Assembly (NCBI GenBank): GCA_037441225.1
Contig: JBBISU010000020.1
Location: forward strand, 1 to 50,741
DNA: 50,741 nucleotides
Origin: Acidobacteriota bacterium
Lineage (GTDB): Bacteria; Acidobacteriota; Thermoanaerobaculia; UBA2201
Reading direction: 5' to 3'
Shown: one piece after another, positions 4,390 to 29,278 of the stretch
How positions within the stretch are numbered: the first letter of the stretch is position 1
Layout of the letters: each line of letters opens with the position of its first letter
Notes under the pieces: generated by a model
The model's input: the letters and a program-made list of their open reading frames with translations, nothing else
Databases searched by the model: none
What the model was told of the DNA's origin: nothing
Program-made: the position numbers and the translations under genes

Positions 4390-5219
4390 AATTTTTCTTC
4401 ATTTAATTTTCTTTTATAAAGAGGTGTTTTATCTTTTTTGTAAACTGATAATTCTTCTTCAAAAGTTTTTCTTTTTTCATTTTTATAAATTATACCAATT
4501 GGATATTTTTCTAAATTTAAAGTTATTTTTAATGCTTCTTCTTTATTATGAGAATCATAATTTTCTGGAAGATAAAAAGAATTTTCTTTAAACCATTGAT
4601 AGGTATTTAATTTATTGAAACTTACACAGGGTTGTAAAATTAAAATAAAAGAAAAACCTTTATGCTTTACTGCTTCTTTTATAATTTCTTTTGTTTTTTC
4701 TGTATCTGCTGCAAGTGCACAAGCAACAAAAGATGCGTCCTGGGAAATTGCTAAAGATAAAGCATTTAATGGATATTCAATTACTCCTTCCACTTGAAAA
4801 GGTGTCTTAAAACCAACTAAACTTGTAGGGGATGCTTGTCCTTTTGTTAAGCCATAGACCATATTATTATGTAAAAGAAGTGTAATATCTGGATTTCTTC
4901 TAATTGTATGAATAAAATGGTTTCCTCCTTCTGCAAGCATATCCCCATCTCCACCAATAGCAATTACTTTCATTTCAGGATTTACAACTTTTATTGCAGT
5001 TGCAGCAGGGAGGGCTCTACCATGTAAGCCATTGAAAAAATGGCTTTTGAAAAAATGTGGAAGCTTTGCTGCTTGTCCTATGCCTGATACAACTATCAAA
5101 TCTTCTGGTTTTAAATCTAATTCTATTGATGCCTTTTTTAAAGCTGTTAAAATTGGAAAATTTCCACAGCCAGGGCACCAGGTATTTTCAACATAAGGTT
5201 TGTCAAAAATATTTTCCAT
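4368..5219 (-). CDS. 2-oxoacid:ferredoxin oxidoreductase, beta (TPP-binding) subunit, KorB/PorB type
   Basis: N-terminal WCPGCGN and the TPP motif GGDGD...NN. Its start overlaps the stop of the response regulator (TAATG). Confidence 0.85.
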   Translation of the reverse strand: MENIFDKPYVENTWCPGCGNFPILTALKKASIELDLKPEDLIVVSGIGQAAKLPHFFKSHFFNGLHGRALPAATAIKVVNPEMKVIAIGGDGDMLAEGGNHFIHTIRRNPDITLLLHNNMVYGLTKGQASPTSLVGFKTPFQVEGVIEYPLNALSLAISQDASFVACALAADTEKTKEIIKEAVKHKGFSFILILQPCVSFNKLNTYQWFKENSFYLPENYDSHNKEEALKITLNLEKYPIGIIYKNEKRKTFEEELSVYKKDKTPLYKRKLNEEKLWSFLKP

Positions 5220-6556
5220 TAAATCTCCTCCTTATTTATTTTATATTTTTTTATTTTATACCTCAATTTATCTCTTGTTATTTTTAAAACCCTTGCTGCT
5301 TTTGAAACATTATAATTTGTATATTTTAAAGCATTTTTTATTAGTTTTATTTCCATATCTTCAAGGGAATAATAATCTTCTCTCTTTGCTTCACTTTTTT
5401 TGTCCTTGTCAAGGTTTAAATCTTCCAAATCAATGTATTCTTTATTAATTAATATCATTGTCCTTTCTATAACATTTCTAATTTCTCTTACATTCCCATA
5501 CCATTCGTATTCAAGCAAAGATATTTCTGCTTCTTTTGTAAGCCCTAATACCTTTTTATTAAATTTTTTATTATATAAATTAATAAAATGCTTAGCCAAT
5601 GGCAAAATATCTTCTTTTCTTTCCCTTAGGGGTGGTATATATATTGGAAAGATGGAAATCCTATAATATAAGTCTTCTCTGAATAGTTTTTCTTCAACTT
5701 CTTTTTTTAAGTCCCTGTTTGTAGCAGATATAAACATTACATCTGTTTGGATATCCCTCAATCCTCCCAACCTCTTAAAAACCCCATCTTCTAAAAATCT
5801 TAAAACCTTTGCTTGTAAATTTATTTTAAGTTCACCTATTTCATCAAGGAATAAAGTTCCATCATTTGCAAGTTCTAAAAGACCTTTTTTTTGTGTTTTT
5901 GCATCTGTAAAGGCACCCTTTTCATATCCAAAAATTTCACTTTCTAAAAGATTCTCTGGTACTGCTGCACAATTTAAAACCAAAAAAGGATTGTCCCTTC
6001 TTCTTGAGTGCAAGTGGATATATTTTGCTATTAAATCCTTTCCCGTTCCACTCTCTCCTTGTAGCAAGATTGTCCTTGCCTCTGATGTTGCAACAGTATG
6101 GGCTAATCTCAATACTTCTTGCATTTTATTAGAAGAAGCAATAATTTCAATATCCTCTTTATCTCTTTTTTTGTACATTAATAGTTCGTTTTTTAAAATA
6201 ATATGCTCTTCTGCTTTTTTTACATTAATTAATATTTCTTCTGCTTCTATTGGCTTTTCTAAATAATTAAAAGCACCCTTTTTTACACAATTTATGGCAT
6301 CTTTTATTTTTCCATAAGCAGTTAACATAATAAATAAGATATCTGGGTAACCAGAAATAGCCCATTCTAAGAGATCAATTCCAGTTCCATCAGGAAGATT
6401 TACATCCAATAAAACAATATCAGGTTCTTCCTTAATTATAATTTCTTTTGCTTCTTTTATTGTGCTGGATTCAAAGACATTATAACTTTCATTTCTTAAA
6501 AGTTTTGCAATAGAAATTCTAAATAGATTTTCATCATCAACAATTAATATTTTCAT
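5219..6556 (-). CDS. Sigma54-dependent response regulator (NtrC family: REC + AAA+ + Fis-type HTH)
   Basis: REC domain (ILIVDDE...VLLDVNLPD), Walker A GESGTGKD, sigma54-contact motif GAFTDA, Walker B LFLDEIGE and a C-terminal HTH (AARVLKITRDKLRYKIKKY). Confidence 0.9.
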   Translation of the reverse strand: MKILIVDDENLFRISIAKLLRNESYNVFESSTIKEAKEIIIKEEPDIVLLDVNLPDGTGIDLLEWAISGYPDILFIMLTAYGKIKDAINCVKKGAFNYLEKPIEAEEILINVKKAEEHIILKNELLMYKKRDKEDIEIIASSNKMQEVLRLAHTVATSEARTILLQGESGTGKDLIAKYIHLHSRRRDNPFLVLNCAAVPENLLESEIFGYEKGAFTDAKTQKKGLLELANDGTLFLDEIGELKINLQAKVLRFLEDGVFKRLGGLRDIQTDVMFISATNRDLKKEVEEKLFREDLYYRISIFPIYIPPLRERKEDILPLAKHFINLYNKKFNKKVLGLTKEAEISLLEYEWYGNVREIRNVIERTMILINKEYIDLEDLNLDKDKKSEAKREDYYSLEDMEIKLIKNALKYTNYNVSKAARVLKITRDKLRYKIKKYKINKEEI

Positions 6557-6583
6557 TTTAAAAAATTATACCATAAATTCATC

Positions 6584-6600
6584 TGGCATAAGTTTTGCAT
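6584..6600 (+). promoter_or_regulatory. Sigma54 (-24/-12) promoter P1
   Basis: TGGCAT-AAGTT-TTGCAT. GG at 6585-6586 and GC at 6597-6598 give the canonical spacing. It sits in the 52-bp gap divergent from the sigma54 activator gene. Confidence 0.7.
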
Positions 6601-6608
6601 AAAAATAA

Positions 6609-6926
6609 TTGATGAATAAAATTTTAATAATTGGAAGGGATTTAAATTTTGTTTGGGCATTAAAAAAATTGCTAAAAGGTGAAAATATTGAAATTGATCA
6701 TATTTTTACAATATCAGAAGCAAAGGTAAGATTTGAAAAAGGTAGATATGATTTAGTTATATTAGATAATTTAAATTTCTATGAGATGGAAATTTTTTTA
6801 AAAATTAAACCAGAAAATTTAAAAATTTTAACAATTGATATAGAAAATTCTAATTTTATTTCAATTCAGAAAGAAAACCCTTATCAAAATATGCTATTAT
6901 ATCTAAGAAATTTTTTAAGTTTTTAA
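6609..6926 (+). CDS. Stand-alone degenerate receiver (pseudo-REC) domain protein
   Basis: CheY-like pattern KILIIGRD...YDLVILDN. The acidic DD pair is replaced by GR and the phospho-acceptor-position Asp is retained. The likely start is ATG 6612. Confidence 0.5.
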   Translation: MMNKILIIGRDLNFVWALKKLLKGENIEIDHIFTISEAKVRFEKGRYDLVILDNLNFYEMEIFLKIKPENLKILTIDIENSNFISIQKENPYQNMLLYLRNFLSF

Positions 6927-6941
6927 AAAGAGAGGTTTCAA

Positions 6942-8579
6942 ATGGCTTTTTTTATAATTTTAATTCTTTATTTTTCTTCTATTGAAAAAAATCACCCTGC
7001 CCTTTTACAGGCAGAAAAAACAAATTGCAAAATTTGCCATATCAAAATACTTGAAGGAAAAATAAAGCATTCTCCAGTTGAAGAAAATTGCATAACCTGC
7101 CATATATATGAAAAAAAAGAAGGAAAGGATATAATAAAATTAACTAAAGCAATACCAGAACTCTGTTTTTCTTGTCATAGGGAACTTTCAGATTATAAAG
7201 AAAAAAAATCTCATATTGTCCTTGAAGAATGCTCAAGTTGCCATAATTTTCATTCATCAAATTTTGAAAAAATTCTTTTAAAAGAACTCCCAACTCTTTG
7301 TGAAGATTGTCATAATTTAAAGGAACTTAAAGAGAAAAGCCATAAAGGACAACCAATTAATGGAACAAATTGCATTGGTTGTCATAATCCCCATTTTTCA
7401 AAAAATGAAAAGTTGCTCAAAGGTAATTTTTTTCATAAACCCTTCATTGATTTGACCTGTGATGCCTGCCATAACAAAACCCTTACAAAAAATGTAAGGT
7501 TAAAAGCAGATGTGAAAACACTTTGTACTGCTTGCCATAGCAATATAGATTTAGAATTAAAGGAAAAAAGTTTGCATATTCCTTTTAGAGATGGAGAATG
7601 TGTAAGATGCCACAATCCTCACTTATCAGAAGAAAAAAATCTTTTAAAATTTAAGGAAAAAGATTTATGTATATCCTGCCATAAAGTTATTATAAATAAA
7701 AAATATATACATGAACCTTTAAAAGATGGCTGCCTTACCTGTCACAATGCCCATTCATCTCCAAAAGAATATCTTATATCAAAGGATATGATGGAAGATG
7801 AAAAAATATCTTCCTTTTGCTTTTCTTGCCATAATATGGATGAAAATTTAAAAAAAGCACATAGGAATTCAAATTTAAAAGAAATAAAATGTTCCATTTG
7901 TCACAATCCCCATTCTTCAGGTAATGAGAAATTTTTAAATGAAAACTCGGTTCATCCTGTCTTTGAAGATTGTGAAAGTTGCCATACCGAAGGAATAAAA
8001 ACAAGAAAAGAAGATCCAGAACTTTGTTTTGAATGCCATAGTGATTTTAAAGAAAAATTATCTTCTTTTAAGTTTAGCCATTCTGCCATTGAAAATGGAT
8101 GCCTCACCTGTCACACCCCTCATATATCAAATTTTAAACCAATTTTAAAAGGAGAACAAAAGAAAATATGCAATGATTGCCACCAAATCGAATTCCCTTT
8201 TGAGCATAAAGTAATTTCTCTTTTAGGTTGCTCTTCCTGCCATTTGCCTCATGGGGGAGAAAATAATAAATTCTTAAAAACAACTGGAAATGAATTATGC
8301 TTATCTTGCCATTTTTTTAAAGAATCAAAGGAAGAAAAAGAATTGGGATTAAAATTTCCAAAAATAAAATTAGATGATAAGATGGAAAAAGGACATCCTA
8401 CAATAAGCCATATTGTAAAAGGAAAAATGATGAAGAAAAAAGGGTTAACCCCACCAGAAAATATGGAAGAAATTTCCTGCCTTTCCTGCCATAATCCCCA
8501 TGGAGGTCAATCAAAGAACCTTTATTCTTTTGGCAAAAGAAACCAAAATGAGTTATGTCAATTGTGTCATCTCAAATGA
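6942..8579 (+). CDS. Multihaem c-type cytochrome with 21 CXXCH motifs (c7-type triheme repeat polymer-like), probably periplasmic
   Basis: I counted 21 CXXCH in 545 aa. They recur in a period of three, with many in the form CxxCHNPH. Hydrophobic N-terminus. Confidence 0.9.
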   Translation: MAFFIILILYFSSIEKNHPALLQAEKTNCKICHIKILEGKIKHSPVEENCITCHIYEKKEGKDIIKLTKAIPELCFSCHRELSDYKEKKSHIVLEECSSCHNFHSSNFEKILLKELPTLCEDCHNLKELKEKSHKGQPINGTNCIGCHNPHFSKNEKLLKGNFFHKPFIDLTCDACHNKTLTKNVRLKADVKTLCTACHSNIDLELKEKSLHIPFRDGECVRCHNPHLSEEKNLLKFKEKDLCISCHKVIINKKYIHEPLKDGCLTCHNAHSSPKEYLISKDMMEDEKISSFCFSCHNMDENLKKAHRNSNLKEIKCSICHNPHSSGNEKFLNENSVHPVFEDCESCHTEGIKTRKEDPELCFECHSDFKEKLSSFKFSHSAIENGCLTCHTPHISNFKPILKGEQKKICNDCHQIEFPFEHKVISLLGCSSCHLPHGGENNKFLKTTGNELCLSCHFFKESKEEKELGLKFPKIKLDDKMEKGHPTISHIVKGKMMKKKGLTPPENMEEISCLSCHNPHGGQSKNLYSFGKRNQNELCQLCHLK

Positions 8580-8589
8580 GAGGTAAAAT

Positions 8590-9597
8590 ATGAAAAAAAT
8601 TTTATTGTTTTTATTTATTGTTTCTTGTGGAACTTCTTCTATAAATGATCAAAAAAAAGAAATAAATATTTTATGGCCACCTCCTCCAGATGAGCCAAAA
8701 ATTAAATTTATAGAAGTTATAAGCTCAAGCAGAGATGTAGAAGGAAAAAAAGAAAAAAGTTTAAAAGATGTATTGTTAGGGATTGAACCTGAAAAGAGTT
8801 CTGTTTTTTTAGAAAGGCCTATGGATATTGCTGTAAATTCAAAGGGGGAGATTTTAGTGGTAGATGCAAAAGCAAAAGGGATCCATGTCTATGATAAAAA
8901 AAATAAAAAATTTAAACTTTATGGCACTTCTGGTATGGGTTCCCTTGCCTGGCCTAACTCAATTGATGTAGATGAAAATGATAATATTTATGTCTCTGAC
9001 CATTCTAAAAAAAAGGTATTTAAATATGATTCATCCGGTAAATTTCTTTTAAGTTTTGGGGACTTTGAAAACCCTGTCGGTGTCTGTGTTGATAATAAAA
9101 ACAAGAGATTGTTTGTTGTAGATTCAAAAAAGCATAATTTAAATTTATTTGATTTTAATGGAAATTTATTAAAGACAATTGGTGAAAGGGGGATAGAAGA
9201 AGGGCAGTTTAATTTTCCAACCTTTTGTGATGTAGATGAAAAAGGGAATATTTATATTGTAGATACTGGCAATGCAAGAGTCCAAATAATTGACGAAAAT
9301 TTTGAAGTTTTAGGTTCCTTTGGATCAATGGGTGTGCATATAGGTCAGTTTACAAGACCAAAAGGAATAGCTGTTGATAAATATGGAATAATTTATGTTG
9401 TTGATGGCGCTTTCAACAATGTTCAAATGTTTAATTCAGAATTACAATTTTTAATGCCTTTTTGTGAAGCAGGAAAAGAAGAAGGAAAATTAAATCTTCC
9501 TGTTGGCATTGAGATAGACAAAGAAGGATATATTTATGTAGCAGATTTTGGAAATGGAAGGATACAAATTTTTAAAGCTTTATATAAAATTTATTAA
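8590..9597 (+). CDS. NHL-repeat beta-propeller lipoprotein
   Basis: Lipobox FIVS-C at residues 10-13. Repeated NHL-type units (e.g. GQFNFPTFCDVDEKGNIYIVDTGNARVQII and GQFTRPKGIAVDKYGIIYVVDGAFNNVQMF). Confidence 0.85.
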   Translation: MKKILLFLFIVSCGTSSINDQKKEINILWPPPPDEPKIKFIEVISSSRDVEGKKEKSLKDVLLGIEPEKSSVFLERPMDIAVNSKGEILVVDAKAKGIHVYDKKNKKFKLYGTSGMGSLAWPNSIDVDENDNIYVSDHSKKKVFKYDSSGKFLLSFGDFENPVGVCVDNKNKRLFVVDSKKHNLNLFDFNGNLLKTIGERGIEEGQFNFPTFCDVDEKGNIYIVDTGNARVQIIDENFEVLGSFGSMGVHIGQFTRPKGIAVDKYGIIYVVDGAFNNVQMFNSELQFLMPFCEAGKEEGKLNLPVGIEIDKEGYIYVADFGNGRIQIFKALYKIY

Positions 9598-9664
9598 AAT
9601 TGGGCAAAAAACCCATTAGATGGGTGAAATAACCCATAATCTTTAAAATTCTCTCAAAATAACT

Positions 9665-9681
9665 TGGCATAAAAATTGCAT
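9665..9681 (+). promoter_or_regulatory. Sigma54 (-24/-12) promoter P2
   Basis: TGGCAT-AAAAA-TTGCAT. A strong AGGAGG Shine-Dalgarno lies at 9705-9710 and the ATG at 9718. Confidence 0.75.
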
Positions 9682-9717
9682 TATTTTTCTAAAACTTTAA
9701 AGAAAGGAGGTTTATAA

Positions 9718-10380
9718 ATGAAAAGATTATTTGCTTTATTTTTTCTAATTACATCTACCCTGGCATTGGCAGTTGTCCAGAACACTCCTCATGATCTGTC
9801 CGTTGGTTCAACTGGTCCCTTTAATCAAGCTGGATTTCCTGATACAAATGTAACAGCCATTTGTGTTTTCTGCCATACTCCTCACCAACCAAGTGGAGTT
9901 ACAACAGATCCTCTATGGAACCACACTCTTTCATCCACTGCTTCATACGGTGTTTATTCAAGTAACACATTAAATGCAACACCAGCTGACATTGGTGGAC
10001 AGCAAACAGTTTCTAATCTTTGTATGTCTTGTCATGATGGAACTGTTGGTGTTGGTTCCCAGTACAATGAACAAAATGGTGTTCCTGCTCCTTCTACTGC
10101 TGCCATAACAATTTTAAACACAAATCCTGCTTACCTTGGAACAGATCTTACAAATGACCATCCAATTAATTTTACTTACGATGCAGCCCTTGCCACTGCT
10201 GATGGTGAATTAAACACACCTGTTTCTACAAGCTGTGTTGATGCTGCTTGTAATGTTCCTTTATTTGGAGGAACTGTTCAGTGTGCTTCTTGTCATGATC
10301 CCCATGACAATACTTTGGCTCCATTTTTAACGCTTACACAAGTTGATAGTGCCCTTTGTACAACTTGCCATCAAAAGTAA
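9718..10380 (+). CDS. Small secreted tetrahaem c-type cytochrome (220 aa), nearly Lys/Arg-free
   Basis: Signal peptide ending in LALA-VV. Four CXXCH motifs (CVFCH, CMSCH, CASCH, CTTCH) and 9 His in total. After the signal peptide there are 0 Arg and only the C-terminal Lys. Thr/Ser/Asn/Gly/Ala-rich. Confidence 0.9.
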   Translation: MKRLFALFFLITSTLALAVVQNTPHDLSVGSTGPFNQAGFPDTNVTAICVFCHTPHQPSGVTTDPLWNHTLSSTASYGVYSSNTLNATPADIGGQQTVSNLCMSCHDGTVGVGSQYNEQNGVPAPSTAAITILNTNPAYLGTDLTNDHPINFTYDAALATADGELNTPVSTSCVDAACNVPLFGGTVQCASCHDPHDNTLAPFLTLTQVDSALCTTCHQK

Positions 10381-12049
10381 GAAGTTTTTTTTTAAATTTG
10401 GGGGTATAATTTTTTTGTACCCCCTTTTATTTTTTTTATTTCCTTTCAATTTAAAAGCGGAAGAGTTTTTTAAATTTTATGGCATCCTTAGCTATGAATA
10501 TAATAAGAGAAATTTTAATCTTTATTCAAAGTCATTGAAAGATGAAGAAATAAAAAACGCTGGTAGGCTTAGTTTAAATTTTAGTAGCTATTTTTGGAAT
10601 AAGAAATTATTGAAATACAATTTGAGTTTTTCAATTGAAAATGGAAAAATTTATAATAATAAAACTTCAGGGAAGTTAAATAATATTGGTTATGGAATAG
10701 AATTAAATTTTCTGCCCCATTCCAAGGATAAATTTTCTTTATTTTTACTCAAGCAAAATTACAATTATAATAAAATTTATGGCTTTGATTATGATAAAAA
10801 AATTGATGGCTATGGAATAGATATGCTTTATAAAAATTTTTATTCTTATTATAAAAAAACAGAGACAACAGTTCCTTTTTTTGAAGAAGATGAAAGGATT
10901 CAGGAAGAAGGGATTATAAAAAAATTATTTAAATTTAGCAATTTTTCTATTTATTCAGAAATAAGAAAAAATTATTATAATTTCAAATATTTTAAGAATT
11001 CACAGGATATAAATTCTTTTTTATCTTATTTCAATAAAACTGGAGAGGATTCAAGTTATAGTTTAAACTTCCTTTTTCAAAATTATAATTATAAAGATGA
11101 AAATTTCGGTTTAAGCCAGAAAAATAATTTTTTAAATTTATCAGGTGTATGGAATAAAAAAATATCAAATAAAACAGATTCAATTTTTACATTAAAAACA
11201 CATAGAAATTTTGAAGAATTTGAAAATTACAACTTGGAAGAAGTACTTAGAATAAGATTATCAAAAAATTTTAGATTGGAAACAATATCTGGGATTTTAA
11301 AGGTTTCTAAGCTAAATCCTTATATTGGTGGTGGCACAATTTATGAAAAACCTTTTTCACATTTTTCATTTTTTTCAAGGGTAGGTTTTCTTTTAAGACA
11401 AAACAAAGAATATGAGGGAAATGAAATTTCTCCTTATGCTAATTTTTCCTTAAATTTTTCAAAAAATAAAACTTCAACTTCCCTTGATTTTAATTATTAT
11501 GGCTTTTCCTATCAACAAAATGAAGCAAAACAATCTGATCTTCCATCTATTTTGGGAGAGTTTTCTTATAAAACTACAAATGATTTTTCTATTAAACATT
11601 CTTTAAGCTGGAATAATTCAGGGATTTATGGATTTTATTTGAAAAATATTTTTAATAAATATGAAAGAGAAAAGATAGAAGGTAATAAAGCAAATTTTAA
11701 ATCTTTTTTAAATCAAATTGATTTCAAAATTTATTCCTTTGCCTTTGGCTTTACTTTTTATAAGGGAGAGGAATGGGATTTTGAAAGGTTTAAAATTTCA
11801 ACTAAAGAAGCCCATATTTCTTTTACCCTTGGAAAAAACATAAGTTTTCAAGGCTCTTATCTTAAAAGATACAAAGAATTTTCCTCAAAAGGAGAAGAAG
11901 AAGAAGGAAACATTCAATTTGTATATCAAATAGGGAAGTTTAGTTTAAGGATAATTGGACAGAAGTTGAGTTATGATATTTTTGAACAAAAAAAGGATAT
12001 AAATTTTATAAGGATTTTACTTTTAAGGAGTTTTGGAAATGGCTTTTAA
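10343..12049 (+). CDS. Predicted outer-membrane beta-barrel (porin-like) protein
   Basis: Signal-like N-terminus (KSKKFFFKFGGIIFLYPLLFFLFPFNLKA-EE). Tyr/Phe/Asn/Ser/Gly-rich sequence with alternating short amphipathic stretches. C-terminus ...RSFGNGF ends in Phe as in OMP beta-signals. The start codon is uncertain: there is no ATG, and TTG 10343 or GTG 10349 overlaps the upstream gene. Confidence 0.6.
   Translation: MIVPFVQLAIKSKKFFFKFGGIIFLYPLLFFLFPFNLKAEEFFKFYGILSYEYNKRNFNLYSKSLKDEEIKNAGRLSLNFSSYFWNKKLLKYNLSFSIENGKIYNNKTSGKLNNIGYGIELNFLPHSKDKFSLFLLKQNYNYNKIYGFDYDKKIDGYGIDMLYKNFYSYYKKTETTVPFFEEDERIQEEGIIKKLFKFSNFSIYSEIRKNYYNFKYFKNSQDINSFLSYFNKTGEDSSYSLNFLFQNYNYKDENFGLSQKNNFLNLSGVWNKKISNKTDSIFTLKTHRNFEEFENYNLEEVLRIRLSKNFRLETISGILKVSKLNPYIGGGTIYEKPFSHFSFFSRVGFLLRQNKEYEGNEISPYANFSLNFSKNKTSTSLDFNYYGFSYQQNEAKQSDLPSILGEFSYKTTNDFSIKHSLSWNNSGIYGFYLKNIFNKYEREKIEGNKANFKSFLNQIDFKIYSFAFGFTFYKGEEWDFERFKISTKEAHISFTLGKNISFQGSYLKRYKEFSSKGEEEEGNIQFVYQIGKFSLRIIGQKLSYDIFEQKKDINFIRILLLRSFGNGF
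10400..10437 (+). terminator. Candidate intrinsic terminator/attenuator downstream of the tetrahaem gene
   Basis: GGGGGTA(10400-10406) pairs with TACCCCC(10418-10424), followed by TTTTATTTTTTTT. It starts 20 nt after the stop codon of the tetrahaem gene. Confidence 0.55.
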
Positions 12050-12899
12050 TTTTTTTATCTTAATATTTTTTAGTATTTTTGAATTTGAAAAGGTCTTAGA
12101 AAGTCCCTATGATTTTAAAGAAAAAAGCTTTTTAAAAAATTTCTTTTTTGGAAAAGGAAATATAGAAAAATTTTCATCCCCTTATTCAATAGTAATTTTT
12201 GGCAAAAATATTGCCATTTGTGATGGTGAAAGGATTTTTTATGTTTCAAAAAATAAAGTTTTGGAAATAATTTTTCCTTTTAAATCTTTTTGTATGGATG
12301 TTGCTTTAAATGATGAGTATATTTTTGCTTCCTTTCCACAAGAAGGGATTGTGGCTTATTATGATTTAAATAAAAAAAATTGGGAAAAGGTTCCTTTTAC
12401 CTTTGAAAAACCAAATGGCTTATATTATGATTATAAAAATAATGAATTATATGTCGTTGATACGCAAAGTCATAAGATTTATAAAGGATATGAAAAAAAT
12501 TTAATCCCTTTTATAACAGATGGTTTAAACTTCCCAATTGATTTAACTATTTCAAGAAATGGGAGGATTTATATAACAGACAGTTTTGACTATGAAGTTG
12601 AGGTAAGGGATGGGGATGGAAATTTTATTTTTTCTTTTGGTAAAGGAGGTAATAAATTTGGGAACTTTCAATCCTTAAGGGGCATTGCAGTTGATGAAGA
12701 TGAAAGAGTATATGTAAGTGATACACAAAGTAGCTGGATACAGGTCTTTTCAAAAGAAGGAAAGCTTTTATATGTCTGGTCTGACAAAAAGATTTCCCAT
12801 CCAAATTTTTTATCTTATGAAAAAGGAATCCTTTATGTCACTGATTTATTTTCAAAATTAATCTTTTTAATTAAAATTAATATACCAGAAGAAAAATGA
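12033..12899 (+). CDS. NHL-repeat beta-propeller protein (exported)
   Basis: Hydrophobic N-terminus. NHL-type units such as GNFQSLRGIAVDEDERVYVSDTQSSWIQVFSKEGK and IYITDSFDYEVEVRDGDGNF. Confidence 0.75.
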   Translation: MEMAFNFFILIFFSIFEFEKVLESPYDFKEKSFLKNFFFGKGNIEKFSSPYSIVIFGKNIAICDGERIFYVSKNKVLEIIFPFKSFCMDVALNDEYIFASFPQEGIVAYYDLNKKNWEKVPFTFEKPNGLYYDYKNNELYVVDTQSHKIYKGYEKNLIPFITDGLNFPIDLTISRNGRIYITDSFDYEVEVRDGDGNFIFSFGKGGNKFGNFQSLRGIAVDEDERVYVSDTQSSWIQVFSKEGKLLYVWSDKKISHPNFLSYEKGILYVTDLFSKLIFLIKINIPEEK

Positions 12900-14389
12900 A
12901 AAGACTAATATTTTTAATTTTTTTTCCTTCTTTTCTACTTTCCCAATGGGAAGTAAAATATACCTACCACAATCTTTCATCTTCAGGTTTAGGAAAAATT
13001 AAGTCAGAAAAGACAAAGGATATCTGTGGCTTTTGTCACACACCACACAATGCAGATCCAGAAGTACCTCTTTGGGGCTTTAAAATTTCCCCAGCAAATT
13101 ATAACTTATATTTTTCTCCTTCTCTGGATTCTGTATTAGAGCAACCAGGTGGTTCTTCCGTATTATGTCTTTCCTGCCATGATGGAACAATTGCTTTTTT
13201 GAGCAAAAATAATGAAAAAGAGATTTTACCAAAAAGCTTCAAGGGCTCTATGGATTTTGATTTAAGTGGCTCCCATCCAATTTCCTTTTTAATTGATGAT
13301 TCTTTTATAAGCCAAAACAATAAAAAGGATATGCTCTTAAAAAATTTAAAGGAAATTAAAATTTCCTTTGATGAAAAGGCAATAAAAGATGATAATAAAA
13401 TGGAGTGTACAACCTGTCATGATCCCCATAAAAACACCTTTCCTGAAGGGGAAGTGCCTTTTGGCAGAATGGAAAAATTTAATATCCTTTGCACATCCTG
13501 TCATATTTCACAAATTTTAAAACATGAAGACAAATTTTATCTGCCAAAGGAATGCATAACCTGTCATAAAGCACATGGAGAAAAGGGAACAATGCTTTTA
13601 AAAACAAAAGAACCTTCTCTTTGTTTTGAATGCCATGGGAATTCCGTTGATAGAGAAAAGGCATTAAAAGATGGTATGATCTCCTATAATTCTAACCCAA
13701 AAGAAGTTCTGTACTCTTTTTCACTTCCTTATAACCATCCTATATCTAATGGTTGCACAATTTGCCATAAATTGCATAAAGTTGAAAAAGAATATGAAAT
13801 TTGTGAAGAATGCCATAAAAATAATCCTATTTATTCTTCACCAGCATCACAGCATCCAGTATATCCCTCTGAAAATGTATTAAAATGTTCTAATTGTCAT
13901 AGAGGTAGTGACGAAAATTTAGGAAAAGGTGTCCATGGCTCCCTTTATAAAGGGCTTGTCTATAAAAATTATGAAACAGAAGATGGGAAAGGAGAAAGTA
14001 AAGAAACCTATGCTTTTTGCTATTCCTGCCATAAAAGAGAAGAGATATTAGAAAATAGTAAGTTTAGTTTGCATAAAAAACATATTGTTGATGAAAGAAC
14101 CTCTTGCTATACCTGTCATTCAAGCCATGGGTCTATTTTTTTGCCACATCTTTTAACCTTTGAAGATAAAATTAGGGAGGATAGGATAGGACCCACTAGT
14201 GATGGGATTTTAAGATATGAAAAATTTGGGGATGGAAGTGGTGCTTGCTATCTTACTTGCCATAATTTTGAACATAATGGTTTGGTTTATGGAGAAAATG
14301 CTCTTATCAAAAATTCAGAAATTCTAATAAGAACAAAATTTGGAATAAAAAAAACAAAATCCAAATTAAAAATATTAAAAGGGGAATAA
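12896..14389 (+). CDS. Multihaem c-type cytochrome, 11 CXXCH + 1 CX3CH
   Basis: Signal peptide. I counted 11 CXXCH plus CYLTCH (14246-14263). The N-terminal four-haem module is collinear with the 220-aa tetrahaem. Confidence 0.9.
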   Translation: MKRLIFLIFFPSFLLSQWEVKYTYHNLSSSGLGKIKSEKTKDICGFCHTPHNADPEVPLWGFKISPANYNLYFSPSLDSVLEQPGGSSVLCLSCHDGTIAFLSKNNEKEILPKSFKGSMDFDLSGSHPISFLIDDSFISQNNKKDMLLKNLKEIKISFDEKAIKDDNKMECTTCHDPHKNTFPEGEVPFGRMEKFNILCTSCHISQILKHEDKFYLPKECITCHKAHGEKGTMLLKTKEPSLCFECHGNSVDREKALKDGMISYNSNPKEVLYSFSLPYNHPISNGCTICHKLHKVEKEYEICEECHKNNPIYSSPASQHPVYPSENVLKCSNCHRGSDENLGKGVHGSLYKGLVYKNYETEDGKGESKETYAFCYSCHKREEILENSKFSLHKKHIVDERTSCYTCHSSHGSIFLPHLLTFEDKIREDRIGPTSDGILRYEKFGDGSGACYLTCHNFEHNGLVYGENALIKNSEILIRTKFGIKKTKSKLKILKGE

Positions 14390-14393
14390 ATGC

Positions 14394-14410
14394 TGGCATA
14401 AGAATTGCAT
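14394..14410 (+). promoter_or_regulatory. Sigma54 (-24/-12) promoter P3
   Basis: TGGCAT-AAGAA-TTGCAT, starting 5 nt after the upstream stop codon and ending 17 nt before ATG 14427. Confidence 0.75.
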
Positions 14411-14426
14411 ATATTTTTATAGAGAT

Positions 14427-17400
14427 ATGAGATATAAAGTTTTATTTTTGCTGCTTTTTTCTTTTGAAATTTTTGGAAACCAAAATCCAATTATAAATTC
14501 TTTTTCTGCTTCTTCTTATACTCTTTTGCCTGGTGCAACTGCTGATTTAAACTTAGAAGCTTATGACCCTGATTGTCCTTCCAGTTGCACAAGTGGTTGT
14601 GGTCAATATATAAGGGCAGATCTTACAAACTGGTCATCAAATGGAGGAAGTTTTTTAAATATAAATAATGGCACTTCTTCTTCACCTTATAATGCATCTG
14701 CACAATGGCAGGCGCCTTTGCAGGAAGGAACATATAATATTTCTATACAAATCTCTGACAGTGGCACTTTTCTTTGTGGTGGAAGGTTATCTGCTTCTTC
14801 AACAATCCAAATCACTGTAACCCAAAATTTAAACAACCCTCCTGTTATAAATTCATTTTCTATATCAGAAAATCCAATTCTTTTAAATTCTTCTGCAATT
14901 TTAAATGTTTCTGCTTATGATCCTGATGGAGATCCAATATCTTATGAATTTTCAACAAACCTTGGGGAAATTCACCCAATCTCAGAAGGAGTTGCAGAAT
15001 TTATTGCACCTTCCACACCTGGTATTGCAAATATAAGCTGCAAAGTTCAAGACGACAAAGGTGCTTTTACAGTAAAAGATTTAAAAGTTTACATAACAGG
15101 TGTGGTGCCAGAAAAATCTATTAAAATGGAAGGATTAACTAATTATAAAATTTCTTCTGATAATTATGGGTTTGTTTATGTCCCAACAAATAAAAATTTT
15201 ATTTATGTTTACAATTTAAATTATGGAAGTTTATTAAAAAAAATATTAGCTCCTTTTGTTGTTGCTGTTTCAATTGATTGGAATGGAAATATCTTTGCAT
15301 CTTTTGGAAATAATTTAAAATTATTAAGTCGAGAAGGGGATACCATTTTAACATTTAATTTACAAGGAAATTTTGAAGATATAACAGATGTCTTTTCTGA
15401 TAATTTAAACCATAAATATCTTTGCCTTTTATCATCTCAAGGAAAAATTGCAATCTTTGATGAAAATGGAAATCTTGAAAGAATTTTTGGTGGAATAGGT
15501 GATGGAGAAGGAAACTTTAAAAAAGCATCAGGTTTGGCTGTATATCAAAATGAAATTTATGCAGGAGATGTAGGGCATGGAAGGGTAAATGTCTTTGATT
15601 ACAATGGAAATTTTATAAGGTCCTTTGGGCAAAGGGGTGGAGAAGATGGAGAATTTGTGCAAATTAGCAGTTTAGATTTTGATTTGGATGGAAATTTATA
15701 TGTTATTGATACCTTTAAAAGCCAGGCTTCAGTTTTTGATTTTAATGGAAATTTAAAGGAAATTTTTGGGAAATATGGAAATGAAACTGGGAGCTTTATC
15801 CAGCCAATTTCTATTTCTTCTAATAAAAATTTTGGAAAAATTTTAGTTTTAAATTCAGGTAAAAATTCAGTTGAAATTTTTAATTTATATTCTAATTCAA
15901 ATCCTCCTGCAAATAATATACCTTCTGTGCCAGAGCCAATTTCCCCTTTAAATGGAACATCTTTTCCTAAAAATAGCAATGTAGAACTAATTTTAAGGAA
16001 AAGTTTTGACCCTGATTTTCAAGAACTTTATTATTCTTTTGAACTATATGAAGAAAAAAATAACAAAGATGAGCTCCTTGCAAGCTGGTTTATAAAAGGA
16101 GAATCCAATGAAATATCTGTTGATGCAACTCCTTTTTTATCAAAAGCAGGAAATTATAAATGGAGGGGAAGGGCTTTTGATTCAATTGATTGGTCAGAAT
16201 GGTTTGAATTTCAAAGTTTTACAATAAATACAGGCAATCCAAATAATCCACCATCTATGCCAAGTTTGCTTTATCCACAAGAAGGTTCAGAAGTAGATAC
16301 CTTGGAGCCAACCCTTACAATTTCAAATTCTAAAGATCCTGATAATGATCCTTTGTATTACATCTTTGAAATATACTTACACAATGGAACAGAAGGGCTT
16401 TTTATGGTTTATAAATCAGATCCAATTTCTCAAGGAAATGGATTGACTTCTTTTAAAGTTCCAGAAGGGTTACTTTCTTTAAGCCAACAAGTTTTTTGGA
16501 GGGCAGCTGCTTTTGATGGATACCTTTATAGCGAATATACACCTTACTTTACTTTCTTTACGCCACCCCTTCCCATACCTTCAAGTGAAGAAGTTGGCAA
16601 TCTTCCTGAAGGGGATTCTACAAGACCTTATATTTTAAATTTTGAGATAGGACCAAATGGTGAAGATACAAAGGTTTATTTCCAAATTTTTGGAAGTTTT
16701 AATGAAAATGAAATTTTCCTAATTGTAAATAATAATTATAAACATCCTTTAGGTCCTTACAATAATGAAAGCTGGTCTTTTACAGAATCTTTTTTAATTC
16801 CAAAGGAAGAGTTAAAAAATAATGAAAATAATAGGATCTCTTTTGAAAATCAAACAAACAAAAATTGGGGTTTAAGAAAAGTAACTTTAAGTCCACCTGA
16901 TAAAATAACTCTTAATGCAATATATTATAATACTGTGATTGATTTGCAAATCTCAGCAAAGTGCAAAAACTCAGAAAAGATAGAGATTTATAAAGCAATT
17001 GGAGAACCCAATTATTTTAATAAAGTAAATGAAATAAATTGTTTTGAAGGAATATTAAGAGACACAGGGCTTCAAAATGGAATAACTTATTTTTATTTTG
17101 CTATTAAAAAAGATAGCGAGGGCTTTGAATCAGAAAGATCAAATATTGTTTTTGGAATACCACAAGCAACAAGCACAACACCTGTAACTGATTTGAGAAT
17201 TATAAAAGAAGGTAATAATGTGAAAATTTTATGGACACCTATAACAAATGAGCCAGCAATCCAGTATTATGAAATTTATAAGGATGATTTTTCAAACTTT
17301 TTCCCTGATACCCAGAACTTTACAAATCTTTATACAACAAAAAGTCCTTATGAAGGGTCTTTTATTGATTATGATGAATTGTTAAACCCTGAAAATATTT

Positions 17401-17450
17401 GGTACATAATTTATCCCCTTTCTTTAAATGGTGAAAGAGGTATGCCATGA
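14427..17450 (+). CDS. Large secreted modular protein: two Ig/PKD-like modules, central NHL propeller, two ~100-aa FN3-like modules, C-terminal beta-rich region; no haem motif
   Basis: Signal peptide. Repeated INSFS...L..A.L.L.AYDPD modules, NHL units (GEGNFKKASGLAVYQNEIYAGDVGHGRVNVFDYNGN and others), and a repeated P..G......P.L......DPD...LYY.FE.Y module at about 15920-16570. Confidence 0.75.
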   Translation: MRYKVLFLLLFSFEIFGNQNPIINSFSASSYTLLPGATADLNLEAYDPDCPSSCTSGCGQYIRADLTNWSSNGGSFLNINNGTSSSPYNASAQWQAPLQEGTYNISIQISDSGTFLCGGRLSASSTIQITVTQNLNNPPVINSFSISENPILLNSSAILNVSAYDPDGDPISYEFSTNLGEIHPISEGVAEFIAPSTPGIANISCKVQDDKGAFTVKDLKVYITGVVPEKSIKMEGLTNYKISSDNYGFVYVPTNKNFIYVYNLNYGSLLKKILAPFVVAVSIDWNGNIFASFGNNLKLLSREGDTILTFNLQGNFEDITDVFSDNLNHKYLCLLSSQGKIAIFDENGNLERIFGGIGDGEGNFKKASGLAVYQNEIYAGDVGHGRVNVFDYNGNFIRSFGQRGGEDGEFVQISSLDFDLDGNLYVIDTFKSQASVFDFNGNLKEIFGKYGNETGSFIQPISISSNKNFGKILVLNSGKNSVEIFNLYSNSNPPANNIPSVPEPISPLNGTSFPKNSNVELILRKSFDPDFQELYYSFELYEEKNNKDELLASWFIKGESNEISVDATPFLSKAGNYKWRGRAFDSIDWSEWFEFQSFTINTGNPNNPPSMPSLLYPQEGSEVDTLEPTLTISNSKDPDNDPLYYIFEIYLHNGTEGLFMVYKSDPISQGNGLTSFKVPEGLLSLSQQVFWRAAAFDGYLYSEYTPYFTFFTPPLPIPSSEEVGNLPEGDSTRPYILNFEIGPNGEDTKVYFQIFGSFNENEIFLIVNNNYKHPLGPYNNESWSFTESFLIPKEELKNNENNRISFENQTNKNWGLRKVTLSPPDKITLNAIYYNTVIDLQISAKCKNSEKIEIYKAIGEPNYFNKVNEINCFEGILRDTGLQNGITYFYFAIKKDSEGFESERSNIVFGIPQATSTTPVTDLRIIKEGNNVKILWTPITNEPAIQYYEIYKDDFSNFFPDTQNFTNLYTTKSPYEGSFIDYDELLNPENIWYIIYPLSLNGERGMP

Positions 17451-18478
17451 GGTTTTTAATAATTATCCTTTTATTTCCATGTATAATTTTTTCTGTTGAT
17501 CCACCCCATTGGTCTTCTGCTTCCACTTATGAAGATTGTGATTCATCCTGTCATATTGTCCATTCTTCCCTTGGCTCTTCTTTAACTCAAGCAACTTCTA
17601 ATGTAAATTCCTGCCTTGCTTGCCACAATCCCACAGGACAGGCATCAAATCTTCCAATATCCTTAGAAGAAAGAGCAAATCCAAATTTTGGTGGAAGGCA
17701 TCATTCTTTTGATGTAAATGCAGTAAATCTAAGCTATGGGGCTGATTTGCCTCAAAATAATCAAATGCTTCCAAGGATTATGGAATCAAAAATTGTATGC
17801 TCTACCTGCCATAATCAACACACAGCTTCTTCTTCATTAGGTGGAACTGCAAGGATATCACAAGCAAGAAAAATTGCAGGAAGTGGGACTGGTACAATGA
17901 TATCTGGTGGAAATTATACAGGGACAAATGGAATATGGTATTTAATTGAAATTGATTCCCAAGGAAGTCAAGCAACAGCAACTTTTAAATGGTCAAAGGA
18001 CAATGGTTTGACATGGGTTCAACAAAATGTTAATTGTGGTAATGGAAATCCAGTGAATTTAGATAATGGAACACAAGTAACCTTTTCTGGTGGTGCAGGT
18101 GCTTTTCAATTAGGTGATAGGTGGGAATTTTATGCTTCTTATCCTTTTTTAAGAGTAAAATTAGATTCAGGAGATAACATAGCAGGTGATAGGTTTTGCA
18201 GAGATTGCCACAGGTCAATGGTTATGACCCATATGGATGTTGAAAATTATGATGGTACAAAGAAAAGCCATCCCATTGGAATTGTTTTAAATGCAAATGG
18301 AATGGGCTATGATAGGACTTCTCCCCTTGATGGAAATGGAAATCCTCAAGGTGGGCTTGGGGAAGATAATATAAAGTCCAATAACTTAAAATTAGATGGT
18401 AATGGGAATTTGCAGTGTTTAACTTGCCATAATGTCCATTATGCAGATTCAAATACAATAACAGAGGATCTGCCATGA
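17447..18478 (+). CDS. Secreted c-type cytochrome, 4 CXXCH + 1 CX3CH, with a central non-haem beta-rich insert
   Basis: Signal peptide. CLACH, CSTCH, CRDCH and CLTCH plus CDSSCH (17537-17554). Gly/Thr/Asn/Ser-rich. Confidence 0.85.
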   Translation: MRFLIIILLFPCIIFSVDPPHWSSASTYEDCDSSCHIVHSSLGSSLTQATSNVNSCLACHNPTGQASNLPISLEERANPNFGGRHHSFDVNAVNLSYGADLPQNNQMLPRIMESKIVCSTCHNQHTASSSLGGTARISQARKIAGSGTGTMISGGNYTGTNGIWYLIEIDSQGSQATATFKWSKDNGLTWVQQNVNCGNGNPVNLDNGTQVTFSGGAGAFQLGDRWEFYASYPFLRVKLDSGDNIAGDRFCRDCHRSMVMTHMDVENYDGTKKSHPIGIVLNANGMGYDRTSPLDGNGNPQGGLGEDNIKSNNLKLDGNGNLQCLTCHNVHYADSNTITEDLP

Positions 18479-21400
18479 AAAAGTTTTTATTTTTTCTATT
18501 AATTTTCCCTTTACATTCTTTTTCTGATACATTAAATTATACCTTTAATTTTGCTTCTTCTTCTGAAGGTTTTACTGCAACTACTGGCGGACAATCAACA
18601 GCTTCCTTTGATTCAGGAAATGGAAATCCAGCCGGCTCTATTTATACCCAGATTACAGGGAGAAGAAGGACAAATTCAAATTATTGGGAATGGACAGGGA
18701 CTTTTGAAGATTTGGGTGTCCCTTCTTCATCAATTATTACAGCCATCCAGCTTACAGGGGCATATAACAGATGCACAGTTTACTCAACAGGGCAACAATC
18801 CACAGCAGGTCCTTATGAGCTTAGAGATTCAACTGGGGCAACAGTCCTTGCAACTCTATGGGCAGGAAGGGATTTTTCAGCTGTAGATCCCTCTTGGGTT
18901 TTTGTATCTGGTTCAAACCAAATCCTTTCTGATATTCCATCAAATACTACAATTAAAATAAGATTGAACAATACTTTAAGGACTGGAAATTCAAATTCCG
19001 CACGGGTTACCCTTTATGATGACCAAATTTCTTTGACAATTACTTATCAATCAGCAGCAAATAATTATGTAACAATTGGTACAATTTCTGCAAATGTGAA
19101 TAGCTGTACTCAAATAACTGCCCAAGCAACCTTCACAGATGATGCAAATGGTAATAGCACTACAACCTTTGAATATAATACTTCAAACAACTGGCCTGGA
19201 ACAGTTGCTTGTTTAAATTTAACAGGTTCTTCTCCAAGAGAATGTATAATACAAAATTTACAAAATGACACAGATTACTGGATAAGGGTAACTTTTAATG
19301 ATATTGATGGGGTTGTTGGAACAAACCCACAGGTTATAGGACCTTACAGAACATACAATTGCCAAACAGTTGTATCCAGTGCAACAGCAAATGTTAATTC
19401 TTGCAGTCAAATTACAATTTCTGCTCCTTTTTCAGGTGATTGGAACCAAAATAGTTCAACAAACTTTGAAATCCAGCAAAATTGTACTGGAAGTTTTTCT
19501 TCCCTTTGCTCAAATGTTTCAGGTTCAAGTCCAAGGGTTTGTGTTGCAAACTCTTTGATAGAAAATACAAATTATTGCTTTAGAATAACTTTTCAAGATA
19601 CTGATGGAGTTGTTGGTACAAACCCACAAACAATTGGTCCTTATACAACCCCTCCTTGTACACAAACAGGTACAACAATAATTCAAAATAATGTATATAT
19701 AGAAAATTGCAGACAACTTAAAGCCCTTGGATTTTTTTCAGGAGATGGTGATTTAGATGGCTCACTGCTGGTTGAATATAATAACATAAATAACTGGCCA
19801 GGAAACATTGCTTGTAATCAAATAACAGGGATTTCACCAAGGCAATGCTTGATCTCAAACCTTACAGCTGATACTGACTGGTGGGTAAGGTTTACTTATA
19901 CAGACCCTGATGGAGTTTTAGGGACAAATCCAGAAGTTTTGGGTCCTTTCCACACACCCCTTTGTGGGGCAGATCAAGCAAGCCCAACAATTACAGTTCT
20001 TTCTCCAAAAAAGGGAGCTATAATTGGTGGGACAGAAAGGTTAAAAATACAGGCTTATGATGCAGGTGGAATTTCTTCTGTTTCTGTTTCAATAAATGGA
20101 GGATCTTATCAAAGTGCTACCTTAAATGGAAATTATAATTGTGGTACAAATTGTGGAATTTATGAATATGATTTTGATACAACCCTTTTATCAAATGGAG
20201 AAACAACAATAACAATTAAAGCACAAGATACCTCTTCAAATTTAAGTTTTACAAGCATCAGTGTTAATATAAAAAATTCAGGTGGAAAACCCCAAGGCTC
20301 TGGTCTTCTTTTAAGAAGAAGCCATGGGAGCCAAATTTGTATTGATTGCCATAACCTTCCTTCCCATTCCAGCCAACACACTGGCACAAAATATGGTTCT
20401 TGGTCTATTGACTGCTTAACCTGTCATACACCTCATTATACAACAAATATTTACCTTATAAATGAATATATAAGGACACCAAATAGTGGTTTGAAAAATG
20501 TAATTTTCAGAGTAGATGATAAAACAGGTGGAACAAATCCACAATTAAGCTATATTGGTGCTTATGATATAAATGGCATACCTTATGATGATGGTATATG
20601 TGAGGTCTGCCATACAAAAACAAACCATTATAGAAACGATGCATCAGGTGGTGACCATACTCACAATCAAAATTCAAGGTGTGTAAATTGCCATCAACAC
20701 TCAAAGGGGTTTGCAGCAGCAGGTTGTAATGGATGCCATAAAGCACCACCCAGTGTTGGGAAGCATTTAAAGCATGATGAAGTTGGACAAGTTCCTTCAT
20801 CTTATACTGAAACTTCTTCCCATGCAACTCAAACCCAATATGGTTTTTCTTGTGCAAAGTGCCATTCTGGGGCCCATACAAATGATACCCATTCTGGAAC
20901 TATAACAGATCCTTATCAAGTGGAAGTAATTTTTGATTCAACCCAAGACCCAAAAAATCCTTTAGGTACTTATAGCCAAAAATACCCAGATGCTTTAGAT
21001 CAAGGAACTGATACAACAAAATACTGGTCTTGGACCCAATCAATTGCAGGAACTGATGGAAATTGTTCAAACCTTTACTGCCATTCAAATGCAAACCCTG
21101 TGGGTGGAAATGTCTCTTATACAACTGTTAAATGGAATGAAACAAATGCAACAAATTGCCAGTCCTGCCACAATACTATTGCAAGGGATGATAGTGGAAA
21201 TTTGACTGATTTGTCATTAAAACATGGAAAGCATATCTCTTATAATGGCGAAGCTTCAACATATAATTATACCTGTGATGAATGCCATAGCTTAACAATT
21301 GTTGACAATTCAAAAGCTCCTTGGCTTTTAGATTCAAATGATTTAAAGGATAAAAGATACCATGTCAATGGCTTAAAAGATGTCTCCTTTTCTCCAACTG

Positions 21401-29277: not shown

Positions 29278-29278
29278 A

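Follow-up and report, generated by a model that had tools for sequence, protein, structure and literature searches.

Predicted sigma-54 control of an OmcE-type cytochrome-filament gene cluster in Acidobacteriota

Introduction

Are the genes of an OmcE-type cytochrome cluster in an Acidobacteriota bacterium transcribed from sigma-54 promoters and, if so, from which ones and through which activator? The question is raised by contig JBBISU010000020.1 (the whole stretch of 50,741 nucleotides that was analysed, hereafter the window), a lone 50.7-kb contig of about 29% G+C in which three near-identical 17-mers precede genes of such a cluster: P1 stands before a small gene for a pseudo-receiver, P2 before a tetrahaem cytochrome gene and P3 before the gene of a 1007-aa secreted protein. 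An initial annotation of this DNA had read the 17-mers as sigma-54 promoters next to the gene of an NtrC-type activator. Our analysis leads us to the view, to which we give a probability of roughly 0.8, that they are working sigma-54 promoters of a single regulon, that of an OmcE-type cytochrome-filament (extracellular electron transfer) cluster.

Results

Sigma-54-like sites in the window

The three sites are listed with predicted transcription starts, for which the C of the GC dinucleotide was taken as -12.

6584..6600, + strand: P1, predicted sigma-54 -24/-12 promoter TGGCATAAGTTTTGCAT; predicted start about 6610-6612, ATG at 6612
9665..9681, + strand: P2, predicted sigma-54 -24/-12 promoter TGGCATAAAAATTGCAT; predicted start about 9691, ATG at 9718, 27-nt leader with AGGAGG
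14394..14410, + strand: P3, predicted sigma-54 -24/-12 promoter TGGCATAAGAATTGCAT; predicted start about 14420, ATG at 14427

When the whole window was searched, the 17-mer TGGCATAA-N3-TTGCAT occurred exactly three times, always on the + strand. The expected count was 0, and a set of 100 dinucleotide-preserving shuffles was free of copies. The looser pattern TGGCAY-N5-TTGCW gave four matches (0.13 expected per window). P1, P2 and P3 all read (C/T)TGGCATAA-N3-TTGCAT and have the GG-N10-GC spacing; with a promoter score that fixes GG and GC and adds seven consensus positions, they match at 7/7 of the scored non-core positions. The motif fits the published sigma-54 consensus mrNrYTGGCACG-N4-TTGCWNNw quoted in PMC2725144. 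Each 17-mer is intergenic and oriented to the downstream gene, and the three fill the larger gaps (55, 120 and 37 bp) among the five gaps between 6557 and 14426, with P3 starting 5 nt past the stop codon of an 11-haem cytochrome gene. Pattern search and gap check thus bear out what had been noted at first: three near-identical 17-mers with this spacing, pointing downstream and occupying three of the five intergenic gaps.

Neither chance nor the duplication of a repeat was accepted as the origin of the 17-mer. The three copies have mutually unrelated flanks, and the 17-mers are therefore not copies of a longer repeat; moreover, each copy is conserved individually.

Other sequences resembling the motif were recorded. 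The fourth TGGCAY-N5-TTGCW match, TGGCATTATGTTTGCA at 47369-47384 (- strand), is antisense within a radical SAM gene (47292-48722) and aimed at the mgtE end; given the expectation per window it may be a chance match, or it may be an intragenic sigma-54 site. A weak sigma-54-like site with GG-N10-GC spacing, TGGAAAAAAGTTTGCAT at 29243-29259 (+ strand), stops 19 nt short of the second ResB-like gene (29279). At 12200-12216, inside the second NHL gene of the cluster, the perfect 6-bp inverted repeat TGGCAAAAATATTGCCA looks sigma-54-like on both strands and terminator-like too. Behind P3, from 14427 to 31228, no further + strand site scored 6 or more.

Conservation in relatives

A protein search with the activator recovered homologues at 89%, 79% and 54-63% identity. 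All their contigs carry the same cytochrome cluster, and the layout of cluster and activator takes five different forms, in which the small open reading frame (ORF) is that of the pseudo-receiver.

Arrangement 1 (window, L001, L002): activator divergent from the small ORF
Arrangement 2 (L004, L010): activator, a convergent set of kinase, radical SAM and ABM genes, then the cluster diverging from that set
Arrangement 3 (L005-L007): activator directly upstream, in the same direction
Arrangement 4 (L008): activator, ABM, radical SAM, kinase and cluster on one strand
Arrangement 5 (L011): kinase, activator, small ORF, cytochromes

A genome scan with an alignment of the tetrahaem cytochrome yielded 60 loci, 58 of which were scored for P2; a scan of genome contigs with the putative barrel protein of the cluster returned no relatives. 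The closest of the 60 loci are mostly Acidobacteriota (Thermoanaerobaculia, Holophagales and Aminicenantia), and the closest named record among the tetrahaem loci is 'Thermoanaerobaculia bacterium Uz-U4-48', at 85% identity.

The motif is confined to the cluster in AT-rich relatives: in 135 kb searched on both strands, 18 of 18 TGGCAY-N5-TTGCW matches are equivalents of P1, P2 or P3, and none stands at a housekeeping gene or at another cytochrome gene. In an unguided MAFFT alignment of the P2 gap, GGCA and TTGCAT are invariant, with variation in the 5-nt spacer and the surroundings. A P2-type site scoring at least 6/7 lies 40-120 nt before the tetrahaem gene in 14/58 loci, against an expectation of about 0.0035 per locus. 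P1 is kept before the pseudo-receiver gene in 16 loci and five different upstream contexts, its upstream neighbour being a divergent activator, a divergent ABM gene, a same-direction activator or the end of a kinase gene; in L008 it overlaps the final codons of the kinase gene. P3 is kept before the homologue of the 1007-aa gene in L001, L002, L005 and L015. The last of these, a Holophagales locus of 67% GC, has the order kinase, activator, P1, small ORF, 21-haem cytochrome, NHL, P2, OmcE-like gene and barrel, followed further on by P3 and a 1025-aa gene.

Acidobacteriota of 64-74% GC carry a canonical TGGCACG-N4-TTGCW before both the pseudo-receiver and the tetrahaem genes. TGGCAC stays fixed in GC-rich relatives, whereas the second element drifts to TTGCTG, TTGCAA or TTGCAG; this asymmetric drift of the two halves fits -24/-12 elements and argues against a symmetric direct-repeat operator. 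Position and orientation are kept in every relative found, up to these GC-rich genomes, which upholds the earlier reading of the sites as sigma-54 promoters beside an NtrC-type activator.

In L005 (5268-9936, - strand), and also in L006 and L007, two cytochrome genes diverge from the activator: one encodes a multihaem protein of 915 aa, the other a 635-aa cytochrome with a fused cytochrome b (Ni_hydr_CYTB) domain. No TGGCAY-N5-TTGCW precedes these divergent cytochrome genes.

The linked activator and kinase

5219..6556, - strand: NtrC-family bacterial enhancer-binding protein and response regulator, with REC, AAA+ sigma-54 interaction and HTH_8 domains (Pfam, translation)
31627..33009, - strand: sensor histidine kinase, HAMP-HisKA-HATPase (Pfam), with one CXXCH in the sensor domain

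The divergent activator gene had been described as encoding an NtrC-type protein with a GAFTDA motif, and both points hold. Pfam finds Sigma54_activat (9.8e-66), Response_reg (3.4e-24) and HTH_8 (1e-12), plus AAA_lid_14, and the translation contains MKILIVDDE, the Walker A motif GESGTGK, GAFTDA and the acceptor-Asp context LLDVNLPD. All of the best 120 activator homologues carry the GAFTDA loop, which is therefore not a defect. The closest solved structures are those of NtrC-family regulators (4l4u, 1ny5, 3dzd); a look-up of the exact protein sequence gave no record.

The activator stays linked to the pseudo-receiver/cytochrome cluster across at least five gene orders, from 29% to 67% GC. The kinase adjoins it in L004, L010, L011 and L015, and in L008 only ABM and radical SAM genes lie between the two. 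Since the kinase and radical SAM genes of the window are 45% and 70% identical to their counterparts beside the L004 activator, the two halves of a signalling module appear to flank the island in the window, and the kinase at 31627-33009 is probably the partner of the activator. Its haem c motif, CQNCH at residue 121 of the N-terminal sensor domain, is kept in 5/6 orthologues (present in L004, L010, L011 and L015, not in L008); this suggests, as far as sequence can tell, a redox sensor binding haem c.

Next to the kinase gene, 32996-34750 (- strand) encodes an ABM-domain protein and a BchE-like, B12-binding radical SAM enzyme, whose 385 bits against TIGR02026 fall short of the cut-off. Radical SAM and ABM genes always accompany the kinase and activator (L004, L008, L010), and the pair may serve tetrapyrrole modification or be part of the signal pathway.

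Candidate activator-binding sites

9601..9636, + strand: candidate upstream activating sequence, called by conservation; two palindromes, TGGGCAAAAAACCCA (9601-9615) and TGGGTGAAATAACCCA (9621-9636), about 21 bp apart
14962..14978, + strand: palindrome TTGGGGAAATTCACCCA within the 1007-aa gene, 569 nt downstream of P3; candidate activator site, single copy

The centres of the two palindromes before P2 lie at about -83 and -62 from the predicted start. In L001, L002, L004, L005 and L012 a tandem TGGG-N8-CCCA stands at -65/-44, counted from the T of TGGCAT; L013 and L015 have it at -142/-121, and in L011 it is ahead of a sigma-54-like site fronting a 1211-aa cytochrome gene. The half-sites are invariant columns in the unguided alignment of the P2 gap. 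Over the first 2100 nt of its gene, the intragenic palindrome is the longest block (17 nt, against 10 for the next) shared without change by the window, L001, L002 and L005, and third-codon-position identity in the gene is 36%; the other cluster genes have no identical run of more than 12 nt. The peptide encoded by the palindrome, GEIHP, is not kept in L015 (GAVAP). That locus has a tandem palindrome pair at -264/-244 of P3 and one site at -45 of P1. The activator sites of P1 and P3 had been expected inside upstream coding sequence. This fails in the window, where nothing comparable was found upstream, and holds for P3 in L015.

The P1 region

6612..6926, + strand: 104-aa pseudo-receiver (REC-like), first gene after P1, lacking a Shine-Dalgarno sequence (profile-profile match)
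6565..6573, - strand: extended -10 TGGTATAAT, predicted sigma-70-type promoter of the activator gene (read from the sequence)

The pseudo-receiver family profile matches the REC domains of the activators with a probability of 97.7% (E 1.6e-12). Neither the acidic pair nor the acceptor Asp is conserved in it; searched against Pfam, the family gave only a sub-threshold Response_reg match (E 0.09). Its N-terminus aligns with the first strand of receiver domains, and therefore the annotated start is credible. That the pseudo-receiver feeds back on the activator is a guess.

On the other strand, TGGTATAAT is a perfect extended -10; 8 nt separate it from the activator ATG downstream of it, and 10 bp from the P1 -24 element. 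TGnTATAAT is kept wherever a gene diverges from P1 (window, L001, L002, L004, L010, L012) and is absent in L005, where the upstream gene is co-directional. Polymerases at P1 and at the divergent sigma-70 promoter would overlap, which would allow autoregulation by occlusion.

Leaders of P1, P2 and P3

Leaders of about 2 nt at P1 and about 7 nt at P3, with a normal leader only at P2, had been proposed from the start, and the predicted starts agree: the AGGAGG leader of P2 has no counterpart at the other two, whose spacing is kept in relatives. The start codons after P1 and P3 stand 13-18 nt past the -12 GC in the window. For P1, the window, L001, L002, L004, L005 and L012 share a gap of 13 nt, and L008, L010 and L015 have one of 12-14 nt; for P3, L005 and L015 again have 13 nt. 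The P1 leaders of the GC-rich loci L016-L032 are about 10-25 nt long, with GGAGG-like sequences.

No Shine-Dalgarno sequence precedes the first genes of P1 and P3, even given a read-through transcript. Three gene starts in the window, likewise lacking a Shine-Dalgarno sequence, have a perfect TATAAT 6-8 nt before the ATG, a layout classically associated with leaderless transcripts: that of the activator (6554-6573, - strand), that at 31250 (31233-31252, + strand) and that at 39026 (39010-39028, + strand). Judging by these start regions, sigma-70-type promoters probably give rise to leaderless mRNAs in this organism. Such starts make leaderless or near-leaderless translation plausible, and therefore the short leaders were not counted against the promoters.

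The cytochrome cluster and its transcription units

6942..9597, + strand: 21-haem cytochrome (6942-8579) and NHL beta-propeller lipoprotein (8590-9597); Pfam, CXXCH count, lipobox FIVSC
9718..10380, + strand: OmcE-like tetrahaem cytochrome, candidate filament subunit, 220 aa; PDB match, 4 CXXCH
10364..14389, + strand: putative beta-barrel (10364-12049), second NHL protein (12033-12899), 11-haem cytochrome (12896-14389); Pfam, synteny in all loci, CXXCH count
10400..10434, + strand: predicted intrinsic terminator directly 3' of the OmcE-like gene, a 10-bp G+C-rich stem followed by a T run
14427..31228, + strand: tight gene run after P3; ORF list, Pfam

CXXCH counts of 21, 4 and 11 in the three cytochromes agree with the first assignment. 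In PDB searches the tetrahaem protein matches 7tfs_A (E 9.4e-41 over residues 5-220), which we take to be the Geobacter sulfurreducens OmcE filament although its depositors named it 'Cytochrome c', and 9yuq_N (E 1.7e-32). Its gene is the most conserved of the cluster, with 82-95% identity among relatives. Of the two NHL proteins inspected, only the first has a lipobox. The 561-aa putative barrel has no Pfam or NCBIfam match.

The terminator folds with -18 kcal/mol (z = -4.1). Hairpin and T run are present in 11/11 relatives, where the arm sequences differ yet still pair. As the terminator follows right after the tetrahaem gene, the barrel, NHL and 11-haem genes would need read-through. It lies within the part of the barrel ORF that encodes the signal peptide, an unusual overlap of terminator and coding sequence; the barrel ORF itself overlaps the tetrahaem stop codon in every relative. 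With its candidate enhancer, P2, AGGAGG leader and terminator, the OmcE-like subunit gene looks like a short, strongly expressed unit. A P2 unit running from the tetrahaem gene through the barrel, NHL and 11-haem genes, as first proposed, is thus right for the tetrahaem gene and not as a continuous unit, because the conserved terminator intervenes. An Rfam search of 5000-16000 gave no match; the conserved P2 leader thus belongs to no RNA family known so far.

The run after P3 encodes the 1007-aa secreted protein, 343-aa and 1965-aa multihaem cytochromes, a rhodanese-domain protein, unknowns and two ResB/CcsA pairs; every junction is overlapping or at most 2 nt. The partition of the island into three sigma-54 regulons, made at the outset, is better replaced by a single regulon served by three promoters.

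At the left edge of the window (243-2427, - strand), an N6/N4 DNA methylase (480 aa) lies beside a 250-aa ORF with a faint BglI-like endonuclease match (E 0.06). The two may form a restriction-modification pair.

Discussion

The presence of the motif, its statistics and conservation, the gene content of the cluster and the linkage of the activator to it were established directly. From these we infer sigma-54 dependence, the transcription starts, the protein that binds the palindromes, the signal of the kinase and the route by which P1 is activated. The circuit would work as follows. The membrane kinase with its haem c motif (31627-33009) would phosphorylate the NtrC-type activator (5219-6556), whose dimers would bind TGGG-N8-CCCA, in the tandem pair at about -62/-83 of P2 and in the single copy at +569 of P3. 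The activator would then form an AAA+ ring and remodel the closed RNA polymerase-sigma-54 complexes at P1, P2 and P3. P2, with its enhancer, strong Shine-Dalgarno sequence and terminator, would give a short, abundant transcript for the filament subunit, and read-through from P2 would supply the barrel, NHL and 11-haem genes. P1 would serve the pseudo-receiver, 21-haem and NHL genes, and P3 a unit of about 17 kb, from the 1007-aa protein through the cytochrome-maturation genes. The first genes behind P1 and P3 would be translated from leaderless or near-leaderless mRNA.

Several observations weigh against this interpretation. In the model organisms studied, a leader of 2-7 nt supports translation poorly, and L008 and L015 would require a GTG start for the short-leader gene. 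No match to rpoN was found when the window and all 71 loci were translated in six frames and searched with an RpoN-box regular expression; what points to the gene is indirect, namely the conserved sigma-54 activator. P1 has no palindrome between -350 and +700 in the window, and no site is detectable for it elsewhere in the AT-rich clade. No nucleotide block of more than 12 nt is conserved in the pseudo-receiver, 21-haem and NHL genes; P3 has a single site, far downstream. TGGG-N8-CCCA is not significantly enriched in the window taken by itself (2 against 0.6 expected; 16 against 11.4 with two mismatches allowed), and the enhancer call is therefore one made from conservation. The P2 sites are also much closer than the usual enhancer distance of 100-150 bp upstream (PMC7057263). 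Finally, the activator reached no NCBIfam equivalog cut-off (PEP_resp_reg 375 against 503, ntrC 369 against 559, AtoC 360 against 714), which makes it an unnamed member of the NtrC family, with no target to be predicted from a named group.

Some of these points could be accommodated if only P2 were productive. P1 and P3 would then bind the sigma-54 closed complex without firing efficiently, P1 as a roadblock to, or competitor of, the sigma-70 promoter of the activator (autoregulation), and P3 as a pause site or insulator. The missing activator site near P1 and the one distant, single site of P3 agree with this. So does the -10 box TGGTATAAT, so close to the -24 element that two polymerases would clash; and PMC4591121 describes non-productive and intragenic sigma-54 sites as common and conserved in E. 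coli. The very short leaders, too, look unfit for translation. However, the 55-bp gap and divergent neighbour leave no other promoter space for the pseudo-receiver gene, and the first genes behind P1 and P3 would lack a Shine-Dalgarno sequence in a read-through transcript as well. A mere roadblock would not need the conserved spacing from promoter to start codon. P1 is retained where no promoter diverges from it (L005, L008, L011, L015), and in GC-rich relatives it has a normal leader with GGAGG. We consider this explanation unlikely.

It is less likely still that the three sites are sigma-54 promoters activated by another enhancer-binding protein encoded elsewhere, while the linked activator regulates something else or P2 only. 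The protein binding the palindromes is indeed only a candidate, the activator belongs to no named equivalog family, and P1 has no palindrome; on the other side stand the linkage of activator and cluster through at least five gene orders over the range from 29% to 67% GC, and the palindrome motif, which accompanies the activator.

That the 17-mer is an operator built of direct repeats (TKGCAT-N5-TKGCAT, period 11 bp), at which a regulator of winged-helix or another type acts on sigma-70 promoters, is very improbable: TGGCAT and TTGCAT do differ at one base and lie one helical turn apart, and the AT-rich flanks are rich in weak -10-like hexamers (for example TTTGCA-N17-TAAAAT, overlapping P1), but the halves diverge asymmetrically in GC-rich relatives as -24/-12 elements do (TGGCAC kept; TTGCTG, TTGCAA, TTGCAG), the invariant positions are GG and GC, the linked regulator is a sigma-54 activator with no OmpR-type regulator conserved nearby, and sigma-70-like matches in the region are at the level of shuffles (74 against 67.5).

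We therefore retain three working sigma-54 promoters in one regulon. In kind, this is a known system, and its assignment as an NtrC-type two-component sigma-54 system is well supported. It shares with NtrC/NtrB (the glnAp2 paradigm; Aquifex NtrC1 and NtrC4 are closest among solved proteins) the REC/AAA+/Fis-type HTH architecture, a partner histidine kinase and GG-N10-GC promoters, and its candidate sites are likewise dyad-symmetric, in tandem and on the same helix face. In contrast to NtrC/NtrB, the targets are extracellular electron-transfer genes rather than nitrogen genes, the loop is GAFTDA instead of GAFTGA, and the enhancer centres are at about -62 and -83, not 100-150 bp upstream.

The unusual features are in the details: predicted near-leaderless starts, a candidate enhancer in close tandem together with an intragenic one, and a promoter that would lack its own enhancer. 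For the intragenic site of P3 there is a precedent in Vibrio cholerae FlrC, where sigma-54 activator sites downstream of the start act as true enhancers, as reported in a passage of PMC6504787 citing Correa and Klose (2005). Compared with what that passage describes, the site here is about 570 nt inside the coding sequence, a single palindrome and a candidate only.

As to the leaders, all 171 mapped leaderless transcripts of S. meliloti begin with AUG (PMC3616915). Like sigma-70 leaderless mRNAs, the transcripts predicted here would have the start codon at or near the 5' end and no Shine-Dalgarno sequence; the difference is that this 5' end would be set by sigma-54. Our literature search turned up no account of leaderless mRNAs made from sigma-54 promoters. 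With some reserve, we put forward as a possibility, at somewhat less than even odds, that the mRNAs of the pseudo-receiver and the 1007-aa protein are activator-dependent and leaderless, starting at or 1-2 nt before AUG/GUG, the 12-14 nt spacing being kept from 29% to 67% GC. The same tentative proposal includes an odd enhancer layout, with the P2 tandem about 60-80 bp off, the P3 site at +569 in coding sequence, and P1 served over about 3 kb or from solution, and a pseudo-receiver that could feed back on the receiver of the activator.

In G. sulfurreducens, the RpoN regulon reaches pili and cytochromes for extracellular electron transfer, with the predicted consensus TTGGCACGGTTTTTGCT (PMC2725144). 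The main text of that study does not mention omcE (GSU0618), whereas here an omcE-type cluster occurs with a dedicated kinase/activator pair, and in Acidobacteriota. Our literature search found no link of omcE-type clusters to sigma-54 and no report placing such clusters in Acidobacteriota. The minimal omcE cluster of Desulfuromonadia consists of two multihaem cytochromes, two beta-propeller lipoproteins, the OmcE subunit and a large beta-barrel (bioRxiv 10.1101/2025.10.22.684050). The genes at 6942-14389 appear to have the same make-up, the barrel being putative here and a lipobox being seen in the first NHL protein only, with resB/ccsB maturation genes nearby; the pseudo-receiver, the 1007-aa protein and the 343-aa and 1965-aa cytochromes are extra. 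The same preprint lists OmcE homologues in five phyla, Acidobacteriota not among them, and its main text is silent on promoters and sigma factors.

How bacteria control the building of conductive cytochrome filaments is poorly understood. This locus offers a complete predicted circuit, made up of a kinase with a haem c motif, an NtrC-type activator, a 16-bp palindrome, three sigma-54 promoters and a filament-subunit gene bracketed by a strong promoter and a terminator. Its conservation extends over Thermoanaerobaculia, Holophagales and Aminicenantia, all of them Acidobacteriota and thus outside the five phyla listed for OmcE homologues. The conserved near-zero leaders of the circuit would provide a clean natural case in which to ask whether sigma-54 promoters can make leaderless mRNAs.

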